64,000 nucleotides of DNA from a virus (taxonomy: Duplodnaviria; Caudoviricetes), in the IMG/VR virus record IMGVR_UViG_3300037067_017690, positions 41,869-105,868 of that record. The stretch is one strand, 5' to 3'. Below, in pieces: positions 9,156 through 25,555 of this stretch. The notes under the pieces were generated by a model, which saw only the letters and a list, made by a program, of their open reading frames with translations, ran no database searches and had not been told where the DNA came from. Position 1 is the first letter of the stretch; every line of letters starts with the position of its first letter. The position numbers and the translations under genes were made by a program.

Positions 9156-9249
9156 AAATTTATATTACCTTATTTTATATTTATTGTAAATATAAAAATT
9201 TTAAATCTAATTCTTAATTGTAATTAATTTTACGGTATTAATTCTTATC

Positions 9250-11811
9250 ATGATAAATACATATATACCCTTACACGTTCATTCAATGACTTCCTTTCTC
9301 GATGGATTTATTGATATTGAGAAATATGTCGCATTTTGTAAAGAACAACAATTTCCTGGTTGTGCAATTACAGATCATGGGAGTATGAGTTCAGTTATTG
9401 AATTCTATCAGCAATGTGAAAAACATAAAATCAATCCAATTATTGGTTGTGAAATGTACATTACACAAAAAGATGATAGAGATGAACCGATCCGAGATAA
9501 TTTTCACATAAATATATTTGCTAAAAATGAACAGGGATACAAAGAATTATGTACTATATTTACAGAATCTAATATTAATCGATATTATTATAGGCCAAGA
9601 ACTCATATTTCTGTTTTAAAAAAATATGCAAAAAATTTAATTTGTTCATCAGCTTGCATGTCCGGAGAAATTCAACAATGTTTATTGAAACATCCAAATG
9701 AAAAAGGATTAGCTATAGCAAAACTTAGAGAATATATGGATGTATTTGGAGATGATTTTTATATTGAACTCGTACTTGCAGATTTAAATGCTCAAAGAGA
9801 TGCAAATAAATTATTGATGGGATTGATAAAAGATTATAATCTAAAATTTATTATTACTACAGATGCTCACTATCTTAGACCTGAAGATGAAATTTGTCAA
9901 GATGTTTTATTAAAAATTCAACGTGAAGGTTTTACATTTTCTTCGAAAACTCATTGGGTAGCAACTTTTGATGAACTTAAAAAATTAGTAAAAGAACAAC
10001 ATCCATATATTAATGATGAATTTTTCAATAAGGCTATAGAATATACTCACGAGATCAATAAAAAAGTACATATTGATTTTTCTGAATGGATAGGTAAAAT
10101 TAATATGCCAGATTTCAAAAATGAATTAAATATGGATAATTTGAAATTCTTTGAAAAATTGACAGCAGAAGGCTTCGATAAATTTCTTGATAAATACGAA
10201 AAGTATGTTGGTCCAATGTCTGAAGAATTGGAAGAACGATACAGAAAACGAGTTAAATATGAATATGAAGTATTAGCAAAATCAGGAAGTTTTTTATATA
10301 TTTTACTTGTAAGAGATATAATTCAAAAAGCCCATAAATTAAAGACGATAATTAAACCCAACCAATTGAAGGTTGGTGATTATTTTTACAAGAATGAAAT
10401 TAAATATGCAGTTATTTCAATTGATTCAGAATTTATAGTGTTGAATTTTTTTAATAATCAAATAGAAAAAATTACATTGGATATTAATGAGAAAATTGAA
10501 TTGAGTAAAGAAATTATGACAGGGATGGGTCGAGGATCAGCCGCTGGTTCTCTGATTTGTTATTTATTAGATATTACTCAAATAGATCCAATTCGCAGAG
10601 ATTTACTTTTTGAACGTTTCGTAAACCCAACTAGATTGTTCGGAGGATTTCAACCAGAATTATCTTGTTTATCTTATGCAATGTATAAATTATATCATTA
10701 TAAAGAAGAACATGATAAATGGAATTTAGAAAATATCTTAAAAAAACATAATATCGAAATTGATGATAGATTAAGAATTGAAATTGATTTTTTTCAAAAA
10801 TATAATGCTGAACCATATATTTGTTATGTAGCTTCAAAAGAAGAATATCGTGAAACAAAAAATATCTTTAATTCTTGGTTATTATATCATTTAGGGATTA
10901 CAGATGAAGAACCTAAAGAAGATTTTAAAGCAAAATATTCTCCTCCAACTTTTCCTGATATAGATGTAGATTTTTCAGATAAAGGAAGAGCAGTTGATAT
11001 GATGGTTGAAAATTATGTGTCAAATAATAATGATCATATCACTAAAAGAAGAGCATATCCGGTTGCGGCTTTCGGACAGTTAAAATGCAAAGGAGCAATT
11101 AAAGATGTAGCAAAAGCTATTGAATCCATTATTATAGATTATTCGAAAACATGGGAAGAACATGAAAAAAATAATAAGAAAAAATATACAGATGAAACTG
11201 AAGATGGATTAAATGTGGCTCGTGATAAATGGGAGAAAGCAAAAGAAAATTATATCAAAGAAGGAATTTTTGATCCTAAAATGTTAAAATATTTATCATT
11301 TGAAAATGTCAATAAAGCGACTAGAGAAATGCCGGCTAATGTTACTTTCGATGATTTAAAAGCTGATAAAAATTTAAAATTATATAAAGAAATCCCTAAA
11401 GTGATGGAAATTGCTGAACGATTGGAATATACTAAAAAATATTTAGGAACTCATGCTTCAGCAGTGTGTATCATTCCTGAATATATGGTTGATTGTGTTC
11501 CGATAGCTAGAACTGGAGATGATTTTATTATAGCTATGAATGATGTTCAAGCATGTGGTGGAGATTATTCTAACAATTTAGGATTGGTTAAAAATGATAT
11601 TCTCGGATTAACTTCATTATTATTTTTACAAGAAGCTCAAGAGATGGCAGCAACTCATTTTGAAGTTATAGCAGAAAGTGGAAAGCGATATTGTTTTGAT
11701 TATAATGCAAAATTCGAATTAATAGATGGGACAATCAAACATATAATAGAATTACAAGAAGGAGATGATATAGTTGGCATCATTTCTGATGATGCCAACT
11801 ATATCAAATAA
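9250..11811 (+). CDS. dnaE: DNA polymerase III alpha, N-terminal part only (PHP + palm/thumb), ending in a Hint/intein-N-like segment
   Basis: LHVHS..SFLDG, AITDHG, IIGCE, TDAHY (PHP); GRGSAAGS, LLFERF, PDIDVDF, GTHASAV, KNDILGL; fingers/HhH/OB domains absent. Confidence 0.93.
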   Translation: MINTYIPLHVHSMTSFLDGFIDIEKYVAFCKEQQFPGCAITDHGSMSSVIEFYQQCEKHKINPIIGCEMYITQKDDRDEPIRDNFHINIFAKNEQGYKELCTIFTESNINRYYYRPRTHISVLKKYAKNLICSSACMSGEIQQCLLKHPNEKGLAIAKLREYMDVFGDDFYIELVLADLNAQRDANKLLMGLIKDYNLKFIITTDAHYLRPEDEICQDVLLKIQREGFTFSSKTHWVATFDELKKLVKEQHPYINDEFFNKAIEYTHEINKKVHIDFSEWIGKINMPDFKNELNMDNLKFFEKLTAEGFDKFLDKYEKYVGPMSEELEERYRKRVKYEYEVLAKSGSFLYILLVRDIIQKAHKLKTIIKPNQLKVGDYFYKNEIKYAVISIDSEFIVLNFFNNQIEKITLDINEKIELSKEIMTGMGRGSAAGSLICYLLDITQIDPIRRDLLFERFVNPTRLFGGFQPELSCLSYAMYKLYHYKEEHDKWNLENILKKHNIEIDDRLRIEIDFFQKYNAEPYICYVASKEEYRETKNIFNSWLLYHLGITDEEPKEDFKAKYSPPTFPDIDVDFSDKGRAVDMMVENYVSNNNDHITKRRAYPVAAFGQLKCKGAIKDVAKAIESIIIDYSKTWEEHEKNNKKKYTDETEDGLNVARDKWEKAKENYIKEGIFDPKMLKYLSFENVNKATREMPANVTFDDLKADKNLKLYKEIPKVMEIAERLEYTKKYLGTHASAVCIIPEYMVDCVPIARTGDDFIIAMNDVQACGGDYSNNLGLVKNDILGLTSLLFLQEAQEMAATHFEVIAESGKRYCFDYNAKFELIDGTIKHIIELQEGDDIVGIISDDANYIK

Positions 11812-11956
11812 GAAGGAAATGACTATGAAGAAGTATTTAAATTCATTTACAGATTTAAGTAAAAAATTTTATGAAGAAAAGGGGATTCCAGAACCCAAAA
11901 TATTCTTTAATTATAAGAAAAAAATTTTATGAAGAAATTTTCAGGAGAAAAACTTA

Positions 11957-13141: not shown

Positions 13142-13987
13142 TCATAAATGAAATTTGTTATCTTGAATTTCTAGATCCTTCTTTTCGGTTTCAGAAAAGA
13201 AATCTAAAATCTTATCAAATGTTAAATCACACAATTCGTCTACCCAATCATAAATGAAATAGAGCTTACGACTTTCTCGAATAACACCGAAAAGAATTGG
13301 ATCTTTTTCTTGTTTTGTTTTATCACGATTTCTATTTTCTGGATCAAAATGTAATATGACATAATTATCAAATATTTTAAGAGCGTCCAATTTCTCCTTG
13401 ACTGCTATAGCTTCTTCTGGGATCACTCGAGTAAAGTTTTTGATCCAATCAAGCCTAAGCCCTTTTTCACATTTTTCACAAATTGTGGCGAGTTGTTCTT
13501 CAGTTATGAATTTCTTAAAATCAATGGCAAATAATTGACTTTCAAATTTGTTTACAAATTCATTATCCTTTAATTTTTCAACGAGAGCAATTTGTCCAAG
13601 TTTTTGAGCATTCTCAATTAATTTTTTGTAAGTGTTTATTCTTGTTTCATAGATTGCGATTTCTTCTTTGCTTTTCAAAACCAATTCAAATGCTTTAGAA
13701 ACTGGCAACGCTGTAATTTGTGTTTTTTTGTGAGAAATCCAATTGAACATTTTTTTAATAAGAGAATTTTTTCGAGATTTATCAATATCTCCTATAGAAA
13801 CACTGTTATTGTTATTATCGCTCATAACAAAATTATTGACACTCCACATTGAGTTTGTGACTGCGGAAGATCCAGTTGCTACGTATGATCCAATATTTCC
13901 AGAAGTGTCCATTTCTTTTTTATGTTTTGGAAGATTGTAATCTACGACAAAATTGTTAAAAATATCCAATGTTTTTTTATCAGCCAT
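13142..13987 (-). CDS. Conserved-looking phage hypothetical protein
   Basis: 281 aa, AGGAG SD; NFTRVIP...FDNYVILHFDP...DPILFG...DWVDELCDLT motifs. Confidence 0.7.
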   Translation of the reverse strand: MADKKTLDIFNNFVVDYNLPKHKKEMDTSGNIGSYVATGSSAVTNSMWSVNNFVMSDNNNNSVSIGDIDKSRKNSLIKKMFNWISHKKTQITALPVSKAFELVLKSKEEIAIYETRINTYKKLIENAQKLGQIALVEKLKDNEFVNKFESQLFAIDFKKFITEEQLATICEKCEKGLRLDWIKNFTRVIPEEAIAVKEKLDALKIFDNYVILHFDPENRNRDKTKQEKDPILFGVIRESRKLYFIYDWVDELCDLTFDKILDFFSETEKKDLEIQDNKFHL

Positions 13988-14172
13988 GGTTTTTCTCCTT
14001 TTTTACTATAGATACCGCATTTACGGTATTCCTTGTAAAAGGAGAAGAAATTTCATGGTCCGAGGAACTATACTATTGATCAAATCACATACTATGGAAA
14101 TTTTGGAGAAATTATCAATAAGCACCATTACGAGATGTATTTTCCGAAAGATCGTGAATTTGTTGTAACTTT

Positions 14173-14324
14173 ATAGGAAGTTTGGTTGAGGAGTGGTTCT
14201 CCTAATAAACTCAAGGTTCTCGCCCTAGAAATAGGAGAGCAAATTTGCCGAGCTGTCATAGCCACTGGGCGTTTAATGATGATGGTTTTATTGCATAAAA
14301 ACCAATGCCAGCCTACTTCCTTAT
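14173..14324 (+). ncRNA. Putative structured non-coding RNA, family not recognised
   Basis: GC-enriched intergenic segment; closing stem AGGAAGU/ACUUCCU plus GGUUG/CAGCC; internal helices GUUCUCCUA/UAGGAGAGC, UGGUUUU/AAAACCA; G-U pairs favour + strand. Confidence 0.6.
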
Positions 14325-14368
14325 TTTAGATTAAAATTTCATCATGAAATTAGTTTAAAATAACTATT

Positions 14369-15190
14369 TCATAAAAAGCTATATAAAATTATATTACTTT
14401 TATATGAAAACAGTCTAAAGAACTCTTTTCGAATTAGAGAGAACCTATATTTCAATTTAGATTCTTTTGACAAGTTGAATAATTCTTTCCAACTCAAAGA
14501 ATTCCAATCTAAGTCTTGCTTCCATAGCTTCTTTAGATTCTCAATATTCTTCTTCACTGGATAAAACCATCCTTTGTCATACTTCTTATAGCCTCTTCGG
14601 GCTATCTCAATCGATGATGCTACTTGGTCTGGTGTGTGATCATCTCCATAGTTCACATTGCCTACAAAACTTGAATATGCTGCATTCACCTCAATTAGTT
14701 CAATACCATTCAATCCACATCTTTTTCTCAAATTATTTACAATTCTTCCTCTATCCCATCTTCCATTTACTAATCTATAATTAAATCCAAATCTTGTCAA
14801 TCTGTCTTTATAAGTAATGTAGACAGTTTGAATTTCTCGATTGATTATTTTTTCTAAAAGATCATTGAATTGAATTCTATTTTCATTCATGCCGGAAGCA
14901 ATATCTTGATAAATCCCATCTACTTTAATTCCATTTTTGATCATGAATTCTTTAAGAATGATTATTTGACGATCTAAATCTGATTTTTGTTTAGTATTAC
15001 TTACTCTAGCATAGAGGACATTGATTTTTTTAATTTTAGAAGATGAGAGTAGACCTGAGACGTCGTATAGAATTTTATGAGAGGTGATTTGAATCCATTT
15101 GATTTTATTAGATTTTTTCTAATTCCAAAGAGTTTGAGAAGTGATTCCAAATAATTTTCTTACTTCTTTAGCTGTTTTAAATTCTTCCAT
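14369..15190 (-). pseudogene. Deleted IS607 element: TnpA (premature TAG) fused in frame to the C-terminus of a TnpB-related protein
   Basis: MEEFKTAKEVRKLFGITSQTLWN*KK...YARVS...DIASG...YKDRLTRFGFN then RLVNGRWDR...IEVNAAYSSFVG...PDQVASSIEIARRG. Confidence 0.85.
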
Positions 15191-15340
15191 GATATCAAAT
15201 TATAAATCATGTTTAGAAATATTCAATAAAATTTAAAAGAGGTATAATTTAATAAATGATTAGATGATAAATAATATAACTTTATAAGATTTTATAAAGA
15301 ATTTTAACAAATGAGTCAATTAAAATTTAATAAATCCCTT

Positions 15341-16845: not shown

Positions 16846-17658
16846 ATGACTAAAGATTTATTTGGTGATAGAATGAAAATGTATGAAACTTTAGACCCTA
16901 AAACTAAATTTATGCCTTTATTGCCAATTTGTGTACGATTGGATGGTAAAACTTTTCATTCATGGACAAAAGGATTAAAAACTCCTTATGATGATGATTT
17001 CAGAAATTGCATGGTTGAAACAACAAAATTCTTGGTAGATGAAACTGCTGCCGTAATGGGTTATACACAATCAGATGAAATAAGTTTGATTCTTTATTCT
17101 GATAGTTGCGAAAAACAAGTATATTTTGAAGGAAAAGTTAAGAAAATAATCAGTGTAATTTCAAGTCTTTGCACGGCTAAATTTAATGAAATTTCTAAAA
17201 AAGTATTTCCGAATAAGCCTTTAGCATTTTTTGATTGTAGAGCTTGGCAAGTTCCGAATCTTATTGAGACTGTCAATGTATTATTGTGGAGAGAATTAGA
17301 TGCTACAAAAAATAGTGTAACTATGGCGGCATCTTGTTATTATTCACACAAGGAATTAATGAACCAAGGGAATGCGGATAAACTAGAAATGTTGCATAAA
17401 AAAGGTGTGAATTGGAATGATTATCCTACGTATTTTAAAAGAGGTGCATACGTAGCCAGAAGAAAAATTCTTAGGGAATTATCTGAAGAAGAAAGGATGA
17501 AAATTCCTGAACAACATAGACCAGCTAAAGATTTAAAGGTTTCAAGAACTACTGTTATGGTATTAGAACTTCCTCCTTTACTAAAAATTAAAAACAGAGT
17601 AGAAGTAATTTTCAATGGGGGTCCAATTATTTTGGAAAGTGAATCACAAATGATTTGA
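16846..17658 (+). CDS. thg1: tRNA-His guanylyltransferase / Thg1-like 3'-5' polymerase
   Basis: RLDGKTFH, YTQSDEISL, FDCR, WRELDATKNS, GVNWND motifs; start set at ATG 16846 (AAGGA SD). Confidence 0.92.
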   Translation: MTKDLFGDRMKMYETLDPKTKFMPLLPICVRLDGKTFHSWTKGLKTPYDDDFRNCMVETTKFLVDETAAVMGYTQSDEISLILYSDSCEKQVYFEGKVKKIISVISSLCTAKFNEISKKVFPNKPLAFFDCRAWQVPNLIETVNVLLWRELDATKNSVTMAASCYYSHKELMNQGNADKLEMLHKKGVNWNDYPTYFKRGAYVARRKILRELSEEERMKIPEQHRPAKDLKVSRTTVMVLELPPLLKIKNRVEVIFNGGPIILESESQMI

Positions 17659-17685
17659 AATTTTTATAAAAAGATATAAAAATCC

Positions 17686-18939
17686 TCATATACAAATCAA
17701 TTTCGAATTTTGATTCATATACATTTCAAGAAAATTGGTCAGAATTTCTGACCAATTTTCTACTTGGGTAAACCATTTACCCATAATTCTTTTAGCAATA
17801 TTTATTGCTGAATTTAAATCTCTGTCAATTTCTATAAATTTATTCAATCTTACTCTTCTTATACTCAAATCAGAATTAAATTCTCTCTTTCCTGTTAAAC
17901 AATTCTCTTGTGAAGTGTAAGCTTCATTTACTTTATAAAAATCTAATCCTAGATTCTTAGCTTTATATTCTAAAAATCCTTTAAATCTACTCAATGTTCC
18001 TCTGTTCTGAGTTGATTTATTCTTACCTCTCTCTTGTGGGCTCCTTCCTCTTGTTACTAATTTCTTTGTTTTAATATCACCAACTATTAAACATCCAATA
18101 TTATTTCCCGTACAAATATCAATTATTTCTCTAGATGCTTTGTGTTGAAAATCCTTGTTCTTATTAGTTATTTTTCTTGAAATCTTATTAAATCTATTCT
18201 TTATCTTCTTCCAATTATTACTAAATTTCTTTTTGATGTCTATTTTCGATTGAAGAAGACCTTTTCTTTTTTCTAATTTTTTAAATTGATTATTTTTGAT
18301 TGAGAAACATTTACCAACATTTGAGAAACATTTACCAACATTTGAGAAACAAGTAGCTATTTGAGAACACCCTAAATCAATTGAAAGAAAATTATCTTTT
18401 GATAAGATTAGATTTGATGGTTGTTCAGAATACACAAAGATAATAAAATATTTATCATCTTCTTTTTTAAAAGTAATAGTTTTTATAGTGGAATCATTAA
18501 TCTCATATTTAGAAAATATTTCTGGAAGATCAATAATTAATTTATTTTTAATGGAATTTAGATTGAGTTCTAATTGATTATTATTTATTTTGAACCCACC
18601 ATTTCCTTGATTGAAATCTAACATAAATGAAGTGAAATATTTCCAACTTTTGAATTTATGAGGAAATTTAGCAGTAGAATTTTTCTTTTTGTTTAGAGCA
18701 AAGAATGATTTGATATTATTAATGAGAGTTCTGCAAGTATTTTGAGCAGATTTAGAATTGATCGTAAGATTGTTTAAATTTCTATAATTTTTATAAAATT
18801 GATTTAAATCTTTAGATTGCAATCCTTTACGAGCTTGTTCTAATAATTGATTATAAAGAATTCTATGTTCATTACTAAGAGTATTTATTTTGATCTCTTG
18901 TAAATAATTTGGGAATATTCTAATTTTTAATGATTTCAT
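17686..18939 (-). CDS. tnpB: TnpB RNA-guided endonuclease (IS607-associated, rearranged RuvC-II)
   Basis: MKSLKIRIFP start, SIDLG, KDFQHKAS, LIVGD, VNEAYTSQ, IDRDLNSAINI. Confidence 0.9.
   Translation of the reverse strand: MKSLKIRIFPNYLQEIKINTLSNEHRILYNQLLEQARKGLQSKDLNQFYKNYRNLNNLTINSKSAQNTCRTLINNIKSFFALNKKKNSTAKFPHKFKSWKYFTSFMLDFNQGNGGFKINNNQLELNLNSIKNKLIIDLPEIFSKYEINDSTIKTITFKKEDDKYFIIFVYSEQPSNLILSKDNFLSIDLGCSQIATCFSNVGKCFSNVGKCFSIKNNQFKKLEKRKGLLQSKIDIKKKFSNNWKKIKNRFNKISRKITNKNKDFQHKASREIIDICTGNNIGCLIVGDIKTKKLVTRGRSPQERGKNKSTQNRGTLSRFKGFLEYKAKNLGLDFYKVNEAYTSQENCLTGKREFNSDLSIRRVRLNKFIEIDRDLNSAINIAKRIMGKWFTQVENWSEILTNFLEMYMNQNSKLICI
18301..18351. repeat. 21-bp tandem duplication inside tnpB (CFSNVGK x2)
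   Basis: TGAGAAACATTTACCAACATT x2 followed by TGAGAAACA. Confidence 0.9.
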
Positions 18940-19543
18940 CTTTAATTTCTCGAAGATTATCTTCTGTTTTTTTAATCTTGTTTTTATAAGATCTTTTTCC
19001 ATATAATTTCATTGAAAAATAATGAACAATTGAAATAAGATCTTCAGCAAATTCTTGTTGTTCTGTTTTATTTTCACTTTTATCTAAAATGATTATTTCA
19101 GAATTATTTTCTCTTGCCAATTTTTCAAAAAATTCAAATCCAAATCTTACTAACCGATCTTTATAGAAGATAATCAATTTTTCTATAGAATTTGTAAGAA
19201 AATATTTAATTAATTTTTGAAGACCTTGTCTGTTATAATTTAATGCAGAACCAAATTCAGAAATGACTTCATCAATTTGAATCCCATTTTTGAAACAAAA
19301 TTCTTTGATTTTAGATTCTTGACCAATTAAACCAGATTTTTGTTGTTTAGTAGATTCTCTGCAATAAATCACATTTAATCTTTTTGAAGTTTTGATTCCT
19401 TTGATTTTGAGTAAATGTTCATCTGTATATCTTCTATGTTTAGAATTTAATTTTATAGGAACTAATTTTTGATTTTTATCCCAATTCCTAAGAGTTTGTT
19501 TAGTAACATTTATTAATTTAGAGAATTCATTTATTGTATACAT
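18920..19543 (-). CDS. tnpA: IS607 transposase (MerR-like HTH + serine recombinase)
   Basis: VTKQTLRNWD...HRRY HTH; YCRES catalytic Ser; YKDRLVRFGF; EDLISIVHYFSMKLYG. Confidence 0.93.
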   Translation of the reverse strand: MYTINEFSKLINVTKQTLRNWDKNQKLVPIKLNSKHRRYTDEHLLKIKGIKTSKRLNVIYCRESTKQQKSGLIGQESKIKEFCFKNGIQIDEVISEFGSALNYNRQGLQKLIKYFLTNSIEKLIIFYKDRLVRFGFEFFEKLARENNSEIIILDKSENKTEQQEFAEDLISIVHYFSMKLYGKRSYKNKIKKTEDNLREIKDEIIKN

Positions 19544-19645
19544 ATAAGAATTATTATAATCCTTATATTATTTTATAATATAAATAAATATTAATGGTCA
19601 TAATTTATCAGAACAGTTTGAATTAGTTAAAATATAGTCTGGGCG

Positions 19646-23984: not shown

Positions 23985-25555
23985 AATCTTATCCTCACCA
24001 AATAGAAATATTTGAATGGTTTAAGGAATGTTTGAATCCTGCGCTAAAAAATAAGATTCTAAGATTCATTATTAATGCAATGTGCGGAGTAGGAAAAACG
24101 CACATTGCACAACTTATAATATATTATTTTTTAGTGCAAGGTAAACGAGTATTATTTTTAACATACACAAGAAATGAACTTCGCGAACAAACATATAAAA
24201 GATGCATGGAAGATGGGATTATTCCGAAAGAATATATTGGGATTTTTAAAACTGATAAAAAAGAAATCGAAAAATTCCTAATTATTACAATACCACAAAC
24301 AATTAGAAATTTCTTGTTTCCTTACAAATTTGATCTAATCATAATTGATGAAGCTCATGAATATTTGGAAACAAAAGATAAAAAATCTGCCCAAACTTTG
24401 AAAAAGATAATTGCATTAAATTCACATAAAAACACTGTAATTATCGGATTAACAGGCACAGCTTTCGAAATTATGTTGGAAGGAAAATTTTTTGATATTA
24501 AGAATGATCAAGTTGCTTACAAAATATATGATTCTCTTATGGCTCTTGAAGATGGAATAATCAGCAATATTAATATAAATGCCATTTACGTAAATTTTGA
24601 ATTAAAAAATGAAGCATATAAAAAAGATGGCGAATTAAGTTCGATTGGTCAAGAAGTTTTAAAAGATAAATTAATAAATGCTTTAAAAGCAAACAAATTA
24701 ATTCCAACATTATCAGGGAAAACCTTGATGATTTGTGCTAAAATATCTGACGCAGAATCATTGTCGGCTTATATAAATTCTACTTTTGGAAATGGCAAAA
24801 CAATTTCATTGTGCAAGACATCAAACCAAGATGATTTATTTGGAATTGATCTAGAATTTAAAAATCATCCAGGAATTCAATTTTTGATAGTAGTTGGGAT
24901 GTGTGGAGTTGGTTGGGATTTTCCAGGATTAATGAATGTAGTAGATTTGACATTTACAATAAATCCTAAATTGATTATTCAAAGATTTAGCCGAGCAGTA
25001 AGAAAATGTGAAGGCAAAGAACCGAATTATTATTATGTTGCTGACGAAAGAAAGACACCATTGATGGTGCGTAATTTATTATTTCATGCATTATATTTAA
25101 CGACAAAAAAGGGAATTGAAACTTATATTAAGAATAATGGAAACATTTCTGCTCCTGTATTTGGGGTAAATATGAACAAAATGATAAATCTTTCTTCTAT
25201 GGAAAATTTTTATAATGAACTAGAAAAAGAAAATAAAAAGAGAGATATCTTAGAACTCGGGGATTTCAAGAGTTACGCATTTTTAATGAATGTCGATGCA
25301 AAATCAAAAATGATTTTTCAAATGTCTTTAAAACAATTGAAATGCCATTATAAAGAACAAAAAAAGTTTTTTGAAAAGATGTTGTCTGTATATCCAGATC
25401 AAACCATAAAAATAATAAATCAACACATTTCTCAAAAAAGAAATAATCCGAATACTTTCAAGTTACATATGGTCTTTAGAGATTGCAAGAATATTTCATC
25501 TGAAATTTGGGATATGTTTTTTAAAGGCTTTGAACCAGAAAACATGTTATTATGA
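23981..25555 (+). CDS. Superfamily 2 (DEAH, ResIII-like) helicase
   Basis: YPHQ Q-motif, AMCGVGKT, IIDEAH, GLTGT, GVGWDFP, QRFSRAVR. Confidence 0.88.
   Translation: MKSYPHQIEIFEWFKECLNPALKNKILRFIINAMCGVGKTHIAQLIIYYFLVQGKRVLFLTYTRNELREQTYKRCMEDGIIPKEYIGIFKTDKKEIEKFLIITIPQTIRNFLFPYKFDLIIIDEAHEYLETKDKKSAQTLKKIIALNSHKNTVIIGLTGTAFEIMLEGKFFDIKNDQVAYKIYDSLMALEDGIISNININAIYVNFELKNEAYKKDGELSSIGQEVLKDKLINALKANKLIPTLSGKTLMICAKISDAESLSAYINSTFGNGKTISLCKTSNQDDLFGIDLEFKNHPGIQFLIVVGMCGVGWDFPGLMNVVDLTFTINPKLIIQRFSRAVRKCEGKEPNYYYVADERKTPLMVRNLLFHALYLTTKKGIETYIKNNGNISAPVFGVNMNKMINLSSMENFYNELEKENKKRDILELGDFKSYAFLMNVDAKSKMIFQMSLKQLKCHYKEQKKFFEKMLSVYPDQTIKIINQHISQKRNNPNTFKLHMVFRDCKNISSEIWDMFFKGFEPENMLL

Follow-up and report, generated by a model that had tools for sequence, protein, structure and literature searches.

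The locus studied here lies in a 105,868-bp IMG/VR virus record (about 42% complete, 29% GC), from which a stretch of 64,000 nucleotides, called the window below, was analyzed. With a DnaE-type polymerase, a peptide deformylase, a Thg1-like enzyme and two TnpB-bearing elements, the source looks like an uncultured huge phage. ARAGORN and Rfam gave no tRNA or tmRNA for the window, and none was found in the whole record either. A gap of 381 nt separates two minus-strand ORFs (14369-14944 and 13142-13987), and it contains the candidate element, a GC-enriched island for which a sequence-only reading had proposed a novel structured RNA. The features on its upstream side and within it are the following.

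13142 to 13987, minus strand: gene P0001 (281 aa); the island is upstream of it on this strand
13990 to 14058, no strand assigned: long hairpin around ATACCG-N6-CGGTAT (14012-14029), with 13-nt arms that are 92% complementary
14055 to 14168, plus strand: 37-codon ORF with an AGGAG ribosome-binding site, assessed by codon GC and family searches
14173 to 14324, plus strand (weakly assigned): the candidate, a GC-enriched non-coding island of 152 nt, described from sequence, GC, codon periodicity and fold z-score
14175 to 14188, plus strand: 5′ strands of the closing helices, which pair with 14315-14321 and 14309-14313
14189 to 14203, plus strand: hairpin AGGAG-UGGUU-CUCCU, kept in the centroid structure
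14215 to 14240, plus strand: GNRA-capped bulged hairpin GGUUCUC-GC-CCUA-GAAA-UAGG-AGAGC, from the sequence and the helix list, single copy in the window
14283 to 14304, plus strand: hairpin UGGUUUU-AUUGCAUA-AAAACCA, kept in the centroid on both strands
14309 to 14321, plus strand: closing-helix 3′ strands (CAGCC, ACUUCCU), with UUAUUUU after them, from sequence and folding

A GC-enriched island and its fold

The GC enrichment described by the sequence-only reading is real, as the best 150-nt window of the island reached 42.7% against an intergenic mean of 26%. With 41.7-42.7% GC, the island comes top of the 25 intergenic regions of at least 100 nt (150-nt windows, 105.9-kb record), and by our own calculation it exceeds what is expected of neutral sequence in a 29% GC genome by about 3.5-4 binomial SD. 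The GC peak at 14171 falls at the start of the closing helix, and just past the island (14325-14368) the GC content drops to 13.6%. This is a real and discrete compositional island, single-copy and without repeated half-sites elsewhere in the genome; either selection acts on it or its acquisition is recent. GC is even across the codon phases of the island (0.38-0.48), whereas the phage genes show about 0.40/0.30/0.15, and the island is therefore not native coding sequence. The earlier view of the island as non-coding was thus borne out: its GC shows no periodicity by codon position, and a conserved small protein was not found.

All the helices named by the sequence-only reading were recovered at their positions. 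The outer closing helix pairs AGGAAGU (14175-14181) with ACUUCCU (14315-14321), and the inner one pairs GGUUG (14184-14188) with CAGCC (14309-14313), including one U-G pair. Inside, GUUCUCCUA (14196-14204) pairs with UAGGAGAGC (14232-14240) over 9 bp including one G-U, AGUGGUU (14192-14198) with AGCCACU (14260-14266), and CGCCC (14221-14225) with GGGCG (14267-14271), while the CCUA-GAAA-UAGG hairpin occupies 14224-14235. The 3′ half of the 14189-14203 hairpin is also found in GGUUCUCCUA. This segment and the nearly identical GGUUCUC-GC-CCUA are rival partners of UAGGAGAGC, which is present only once, and the domain could therefore adopt two states. The 14215-14240 hairpin includes AGG-UUCUCGC-CCU, a look-alike of the P3/L3 of HDV ribozymes.

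The plus strand of the island gave a minimum free energy (MFE) of −43.9 kcal/mol with a z-score of −2.10, equalled by 4 of 200 shuffles, and the minus strand gave a z-score of −1.86. The MFE structure accounts for 1.3% of the ensemble, and in the centroid the closing helices and two hairpins alone are retained, with the centre of the island unpaired: the ensemble is ill-defined. The strong-helix count was above that of shuffles at p values of about 0.02-0.12 on both strands. At −16.7 kcal/mol, the closing duplex is the best long-range duplex in the 381-nt intergenic region, and it is equalled in 3% of shuffles; its minus-strand counterpart amounts to −11.9 kcal/mol, i.e. 4.8 kcal/mol weaker. 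The earlier argument that G-U pairs point to the plus strand stands for the closing helix, and this difference in duplex energy is the only strand evidence for the island. The fold z-scores are similar on both strands.

In a genome-wide RNALfold scan, the island (14175-14322, plus strand) obtained a z-score of −2.65, a value to be read against the 826 local-structure records of at least 100 nt that reach z ≤ −2.5 in the genome, the best at −9.4. The positive control, the omega region of an intact IS607-like element (17651-17800, minus strand), gave −5.9 to −9.4, and the corresponding omega region of the decayed element beside the island (14353-14500, minus strand) gave −2.95. A folding energy no better than that of shuffles had been named in advance as evidence against a structured RNA; what we obtained is a marginal excess only, which is ordinary genome-wide. 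Folding energy does not separate the island from the genomic background, and its statistics are all marginal and mutually non-independent.

Other structured elements were observed in the window. The intact IS607-like element spans 17649-19606 on the minus strand (tnpA 18920-19543, tnpB 17686-19002), and its tnpB 3′ end together with its right end is the most strongly structured region of the record, with the z-scores quoted above for the control. As its omega region has no Rfam match, this omega RNA type is absent from Rfam 15. A perfect 19-bp hairpin is present at 11766-11806 on both strands, at the very end of a truncated DnaE ORF (9250-11811), with fold z-scores of −6 to −7 for 11760-11905. 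Also, a 100-nt plus-strand segment at 24040-24139 is closed by an A/U-rich helix of 15 bp and includes a GC-rich hairpin of 11 bp (UGCAAUGUGCG...CGCACAUUGCA), with a fold z-score of −6.5 equalled by 0 of 200 shuffles. As a candidate RNA or terminator, this segment is stronger than the island.

A putative divergent control region and a dead IS607 element

On the upstream side, the GGTAT motif and the short ORF pointed out by the sequence-only reading are both present, as CGGTAT at 14024-14029 and as the 37-codon ORF. The GC content of this ORF by codon position (0.24/0.32/0.42) is the reverse of that of the phage genes, no PHROG or Pfam match was obtained for it, and it is probably not coding. 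In the 13990-14058 hairpin two ribosome-binding sites are buried, that of the 281-aa gene (minus strand) and that of the 37-codon ORF (plus strand), and the region 13952-14120 on the plus strand reaches an RNALfold z-score of −4.29. CGGTAT is not enriched genome-wide (17 found against 29 expected) and is near start codons only in a handful of cases. Several genes, DnaE (9250) among them, have it 9-11 nt ahead of their ATG, and further sites of ATACCG-N6-CGGTAT or CGGTAT are at 9233, 908 and two positions before the window. Neither a sigma-70-like promoter directly upstream of the island on the plus strand nor a canonical terminator for it was seen.

The 281-aa gene P0001 has 842 homologues at 35-45% identity among 5.8 billion proteins (best 45%), none with a Pfam family. 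These homologues are on contigs of up to about 400 kb. The PHROG label of P0001, "transposase" (phrog_10081), receives no support from the context of three loci, and its ESM Atlas model is poor (pLDDT 0.38). The island as a conserved leader of this gene was rejected, as three homologous loci are without intergenic space upstream.

On the other side, the flanking "gene" is the remnant of a transposon, which is context beyond the sequence-only reading. Its features are the following.

14333 to 14352, minus strand: flank past the transposon right end, the putative guide source for the omega RNA, placed by the conservation boundary and TnpB biology
14353 to 14540, minus strand: conserved tnpB 3′ end plus about 16 nt, the predicted omega-RNA scaffold and right end (...TATTTTAAAC), from an alignment of 35 relatives
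14353 to 15294, minus strand: dead IS607-type element, with the left end roughly placed where similarity to locus L004 begins, near 15294
14369 to 14944, minus strand: 191-aa ORF, an IS607 TnpA fragment fused in frame to the C-terminus of TnpB, from Pfam, PHROG and homologues
14945 to 15190, minus strand: N-terminal part of the same tnpA frame, with its ATG at 15190, from comparison with the intact copy

Residues 1-56 of the 191-aa ORF are a fragment of the catalytic domain of an IS607-type serine recombinase (Pfam Resolvase residues 3-54; PHROG 6620, "transposase"). Its last 137 aa match, at 65-69% identity and with 98-99% of this segment aligned, the C-terminal parts of "IS605 OrfB" (TnpB) proteins of 401-487 aa. 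The only interruption of the tnpA frame is a TAG at 15119-15121, in place of a conserved Trp codon that the intact tnpA (18920-19543) has. The element thus carries a nonsense mutation as well as an internal deletion that joins tnpA in frame to the 3′ part of tnpB, and it is therefore dead. Its TnpB family is common among huge phages and present there in multiple copies, up to 4 of them in one 553-kb record (loci L010-L089, IMG/VR); most copies are solo-tnpB elements of about 1.5 kb with a right end some 30-70 nt past the stop. Among species-representative prokaryote genomes, the family was found in a few MAGs only, several of them from ruminant guts (L090-L099). The omega RNA of TnpB takes its guide from the flank beyond the right end of the element. 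Here this flank is AT-rich and holds the palindrome AATTTCATGATGAAATT, and the scaffold at 14353-14540 has an RNALfold z-score of −3.2.

Known RNA families and homologues

The comparison with Rfam 15 suggested by the sequence-only reading gave no match at gathering score in the window. Within the island, at E ≤ 10, only a noise-level overlap with rnk_pseudo was obtained (14227-14292, E 6), and no Rfam ribozyme family, including HDV, twister and hammerhead, appeared at this threshold. RAGATH-18, whose model has an E-loop and kink-turn core, had no match up to E = 10 in 13900-14450 and none at gathering score in the window. The sole riboswitch-type row was preQ1-II at 13952-14052, outside the island, with 24.3 bits against a gathering score of 47, and it owes its score mainly to a ribosome-binding site. 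The island belongs to no described RNA family.

HDV-like ribozymes, which include the phage "theta" ribozymes, fold as a nested double pseudoknot in the order P1-P2-P3/L3-P1′-P1.1-P4-J4/2-P2′ and self-cleave at the 5′ edge of P1, with the catalytic C in J4/2. The island resembles them in its 3-bp AGG/CCU stem closing the 7-nt loop UUCUCGC, as in P3/L3, and in the GG that follows AGAAAUA after this stem. It differs in its best P1, made of 6 A-U/G-U pairs and far upstream, and in five extra nucleotides that separate P3 from the one strong candidate for a P1 strand. The remark of the sequence-only reading that the HDV-like fold does not fit was upheld by manual threading on AGG-UUCUCGC-CCU, which failed: no more than 6 weak pairs were available for P1 and no more than 4 bp for P2, and P4 was missing. 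An HDV-like ribozyme was rejected on these grounds.

With riboswitch and attenuator platforms, the island shares two segments that vie for one strand and would give mutually exclusive helices. It differs from them in its surroundings, as the next plus-strand feature after it is the end of an oppositely oriented transposon, with no plus-strand gene, and as on the minus strand it is upstream of the promoter-like site of the 281-aa gene. A known riboswitch class was rejected, since no Rfam aptamer match was found inside the island and no plus-strand gene follows it.

Homologues of the island were searched at several levels. Exact 16-22-mers were absent from viral, genome and metagenome collections, or their seeds were rejected by the covariance model. 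BLAST against phage and plasmid records gave no match, and no homologue was found in 48 whole huge-phage records or in 307 bacterial genomes. The covariance model detected nothing in 151 genomes of the order Bacteroidales. In 151 genomes of the class Clostridia it gave one match of 21 bits, which was discarded as it is inside an ORF of more than 1000 aa and at chance level for 151 genomes. Searches of viral and metagenome collections with DnaE peptide patterns yielded no close relative of the phage. As no collection contained such a relative, the failure to find homologues speaks neither for nor against an RNA gene.

Competing readings of the island

We tentatively favour a lineage-specific small structured RNA encoded on the plus strand, to which we assign a probability of about 0.38; we infer transcription, strand, ends and any function of this RNA. 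A short transcript of about 270-290 nt would start in the compact divergent control region that also serves the 281-aa gene, pass through the probably untranslated 37-codon frame and end at the U-rich tract after 14321, with the island as its 3′ domain. The closing helix (7 + 5 bp), whose U-G pair is workable only on the plus strand, would lock three hairpins into a compact domain. Domains of this kind, closed between their 5′ and 3′ strands, stabilise the 3′ end of an RNA. This plus-strand RNA is supported because the GC island starts at the closing helix and ends sharply after 14324, and because the closing helix is the best long-range duplex and is stronger on the plus strand. Fold z-scores such as those of the island (−2.1, and −2.65 by RNALfold) are within the range of many genuine small RNAs. 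Against it, hundreds of local structures in the genome score equally, the real structured regions score far better, and no homologue offers covariation in its favour. Of the earlier proposal of a novel non-coding RNA, ribozyme or switch, the non-coding character and the absence of an Rfam family stood, whereas the fold was marginal against shuffles and neither a homologue nor a canonical promoter or terminator was found. Judged by the conditions for refutation that the sequence-only reading had set itself, the case is weak.

Nearly as likely is that the island has no RNA function and consists of foreign, higher-GC DNA that has still to drift to the AT richness of the phage, a relic or hitch-hiker at a site of repeated mobile-element traffic, with helices that chance would give in 42% GC DNA of this length. 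The thermodynamic signal is ordinary genome-wide and the ensemble ill-defined, each single helix has a length expected by chance, and the island, devoid of transcription signals and homologues, adjoins a dead IS607 element with a nonsense mutation and a large internal deletion. Nevertheless, IS607-type transposition is not known to bring flanking DNA along, and the relatives of the transposon are themselves AT-rich. The edges of the GC island are also sharp and match the long-range helix, and a donor sequence was not found in any collection searched.

It is unlikely that the island is an omega/reRNA scaffold, either as a long minus-strand 3′ extension of the IS607 remnant or as a lost or miniature OMEGA element of another family. 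Its position, 45-196 nt past the tnpB stop, is comparable to the placement of downstream reRNAs. The RAGATH-18-derived reRNA of the IS607 TnpB of ISFba1 has 184-187 nt with several stem-loops and two pseudoknots and starts 13 nt after the gene, and in some IS607 systems the reRNA is wholly downstream of tnpB (Cell Res 2024, PMC11061315). The island resembles the ISFba1 reRNA in being just downstream of tnpB, GC-enriched and rich in stem-loops with possible pseudoknots, both being about 150-190 nt long. It differs in being beyond the right end of the element, in having neither co-conservation with TnpB nor a RAGATH-18 match, and in its favoured strand, which is opposite to tnpB.

The conservation of the TnpB family decides against such a scaffold here. 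The three closest loci conserve the last ~150 nt of the ORF, synonymous positions included, and their conservation stops a few bases after the stop codon, at a shared ...TATTTTA(AA) motif. Among the 35 relatives, the top-base frequency is 0.6-0.88 from 14538 to about 14360, drops past about 14353-14358 and is at background (0.30-0.53) across the island, and similarity among paralogues in huge phages fades about 30-70 nt after the stop. From this boundary at about 14353 it follows that the scaffold is the ORF-overlapping segment 14353-14540; the island begins 28 nt beyond the right end, and its inclusion in the adjacent mobile element was accordingly rejected. A covariance model of the island (R1) detected only the island itself among 80 viral loci of the TnpB family (L010-L089) and L004-L006, the search of the viral loci taking in flanks of 1.5-2.5 kb; it detected nothing in 10 genome loci or in the 48 whole huge-phage records. 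Co-conservation with the TnpB family was rejected on these results. Also, the island is unlike the omega region of either transposon and unlike the mini-IS607 element of the genome, and its closing helix is weaker on the tnpB strand. The island is not the omega RNA of the adjacent IS607 element, and for the adjacent TnpB family the omega reading is already largely refuted.

A further point for an omega scaffold is a 12/13 direct repeat that joins 14166-14178, at the edge of the island, to 15277-15289, near the left end of the transposon. A lenient alignment over 100 nt beats shuffles (p = 0.003), but 305 of 3004 genomic windows (10%) score equally, and nhmmer found nothing when searching for a second left end beside the island. 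A second, diverged left end abutting the island, which would place it inside a tandem element, was discarded after this real-window control and the negative nhmmer search. The left-end motif as a genome-wide promoter was likewise rejected, with just three sites at no more than one mismatch. PATE-like mini-elements of the IS200/IS605/IS607 type, which are protein-less, keep only the ends and the omega RNA. The island is similarly short, non-coding and structured; it differs from them in having no recognisable ends and in being single-copy.

That the island acts as DNA, for example by binding a protein or serving as a recombination site, is very unlikely. The island contains a 10-bp palindrome, GCAAATTTGC, and several inverted repeats, which are equal on both strands, and it is between a recombinase-bearing element and a divergent control region, but palindrome and repeats are at chance level and no half-sites recur elsewhere in the genome. 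The least probable reading, to which we give hardly any weight, is a small protein encoded in the 47/50-codon plus-strand frame (14177/14186-14329) or in a 65-codon open minus-strand frame: both frames are open across the island and the TTG start of the plus-strand frame has an AGGA motif 6-7 nt before it (AGGAAG), but GC3 is 0.42 against 0.12-0.27 in genes, Pfam gave no match at E ≤ 1 for either frame, the sole PHROG match of the 50-aa plus-strand frame is weak (phrog_8008, E 0.4), and HMMER with this frame against 1.84 billion representatives gave just two weak matches, both to repeat proteins whose score sums several ankyrin-like repeat matches of ~25 residues.

The present value of these data is negative and contextual: the island is not a TnpB guide RNA despite its guide-like position, and the adjacent "gene" is a dead IS607 fusion. 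It is improbable, in our view, that the island is a genuinely new, lineage-specific structured RNA of a huge phage, for example a two-state regulatory or self-processing one, standing back to back with an omega guide segment. Genes associated with TnpB are a setting where new ribozyme classes have been found before. If the island proved to be a stable transcript with a defined fold, the very few non-coding RNAs known from huge phages would gain an unclassified member, one that adjoins an RNA-guided transposon machinery.
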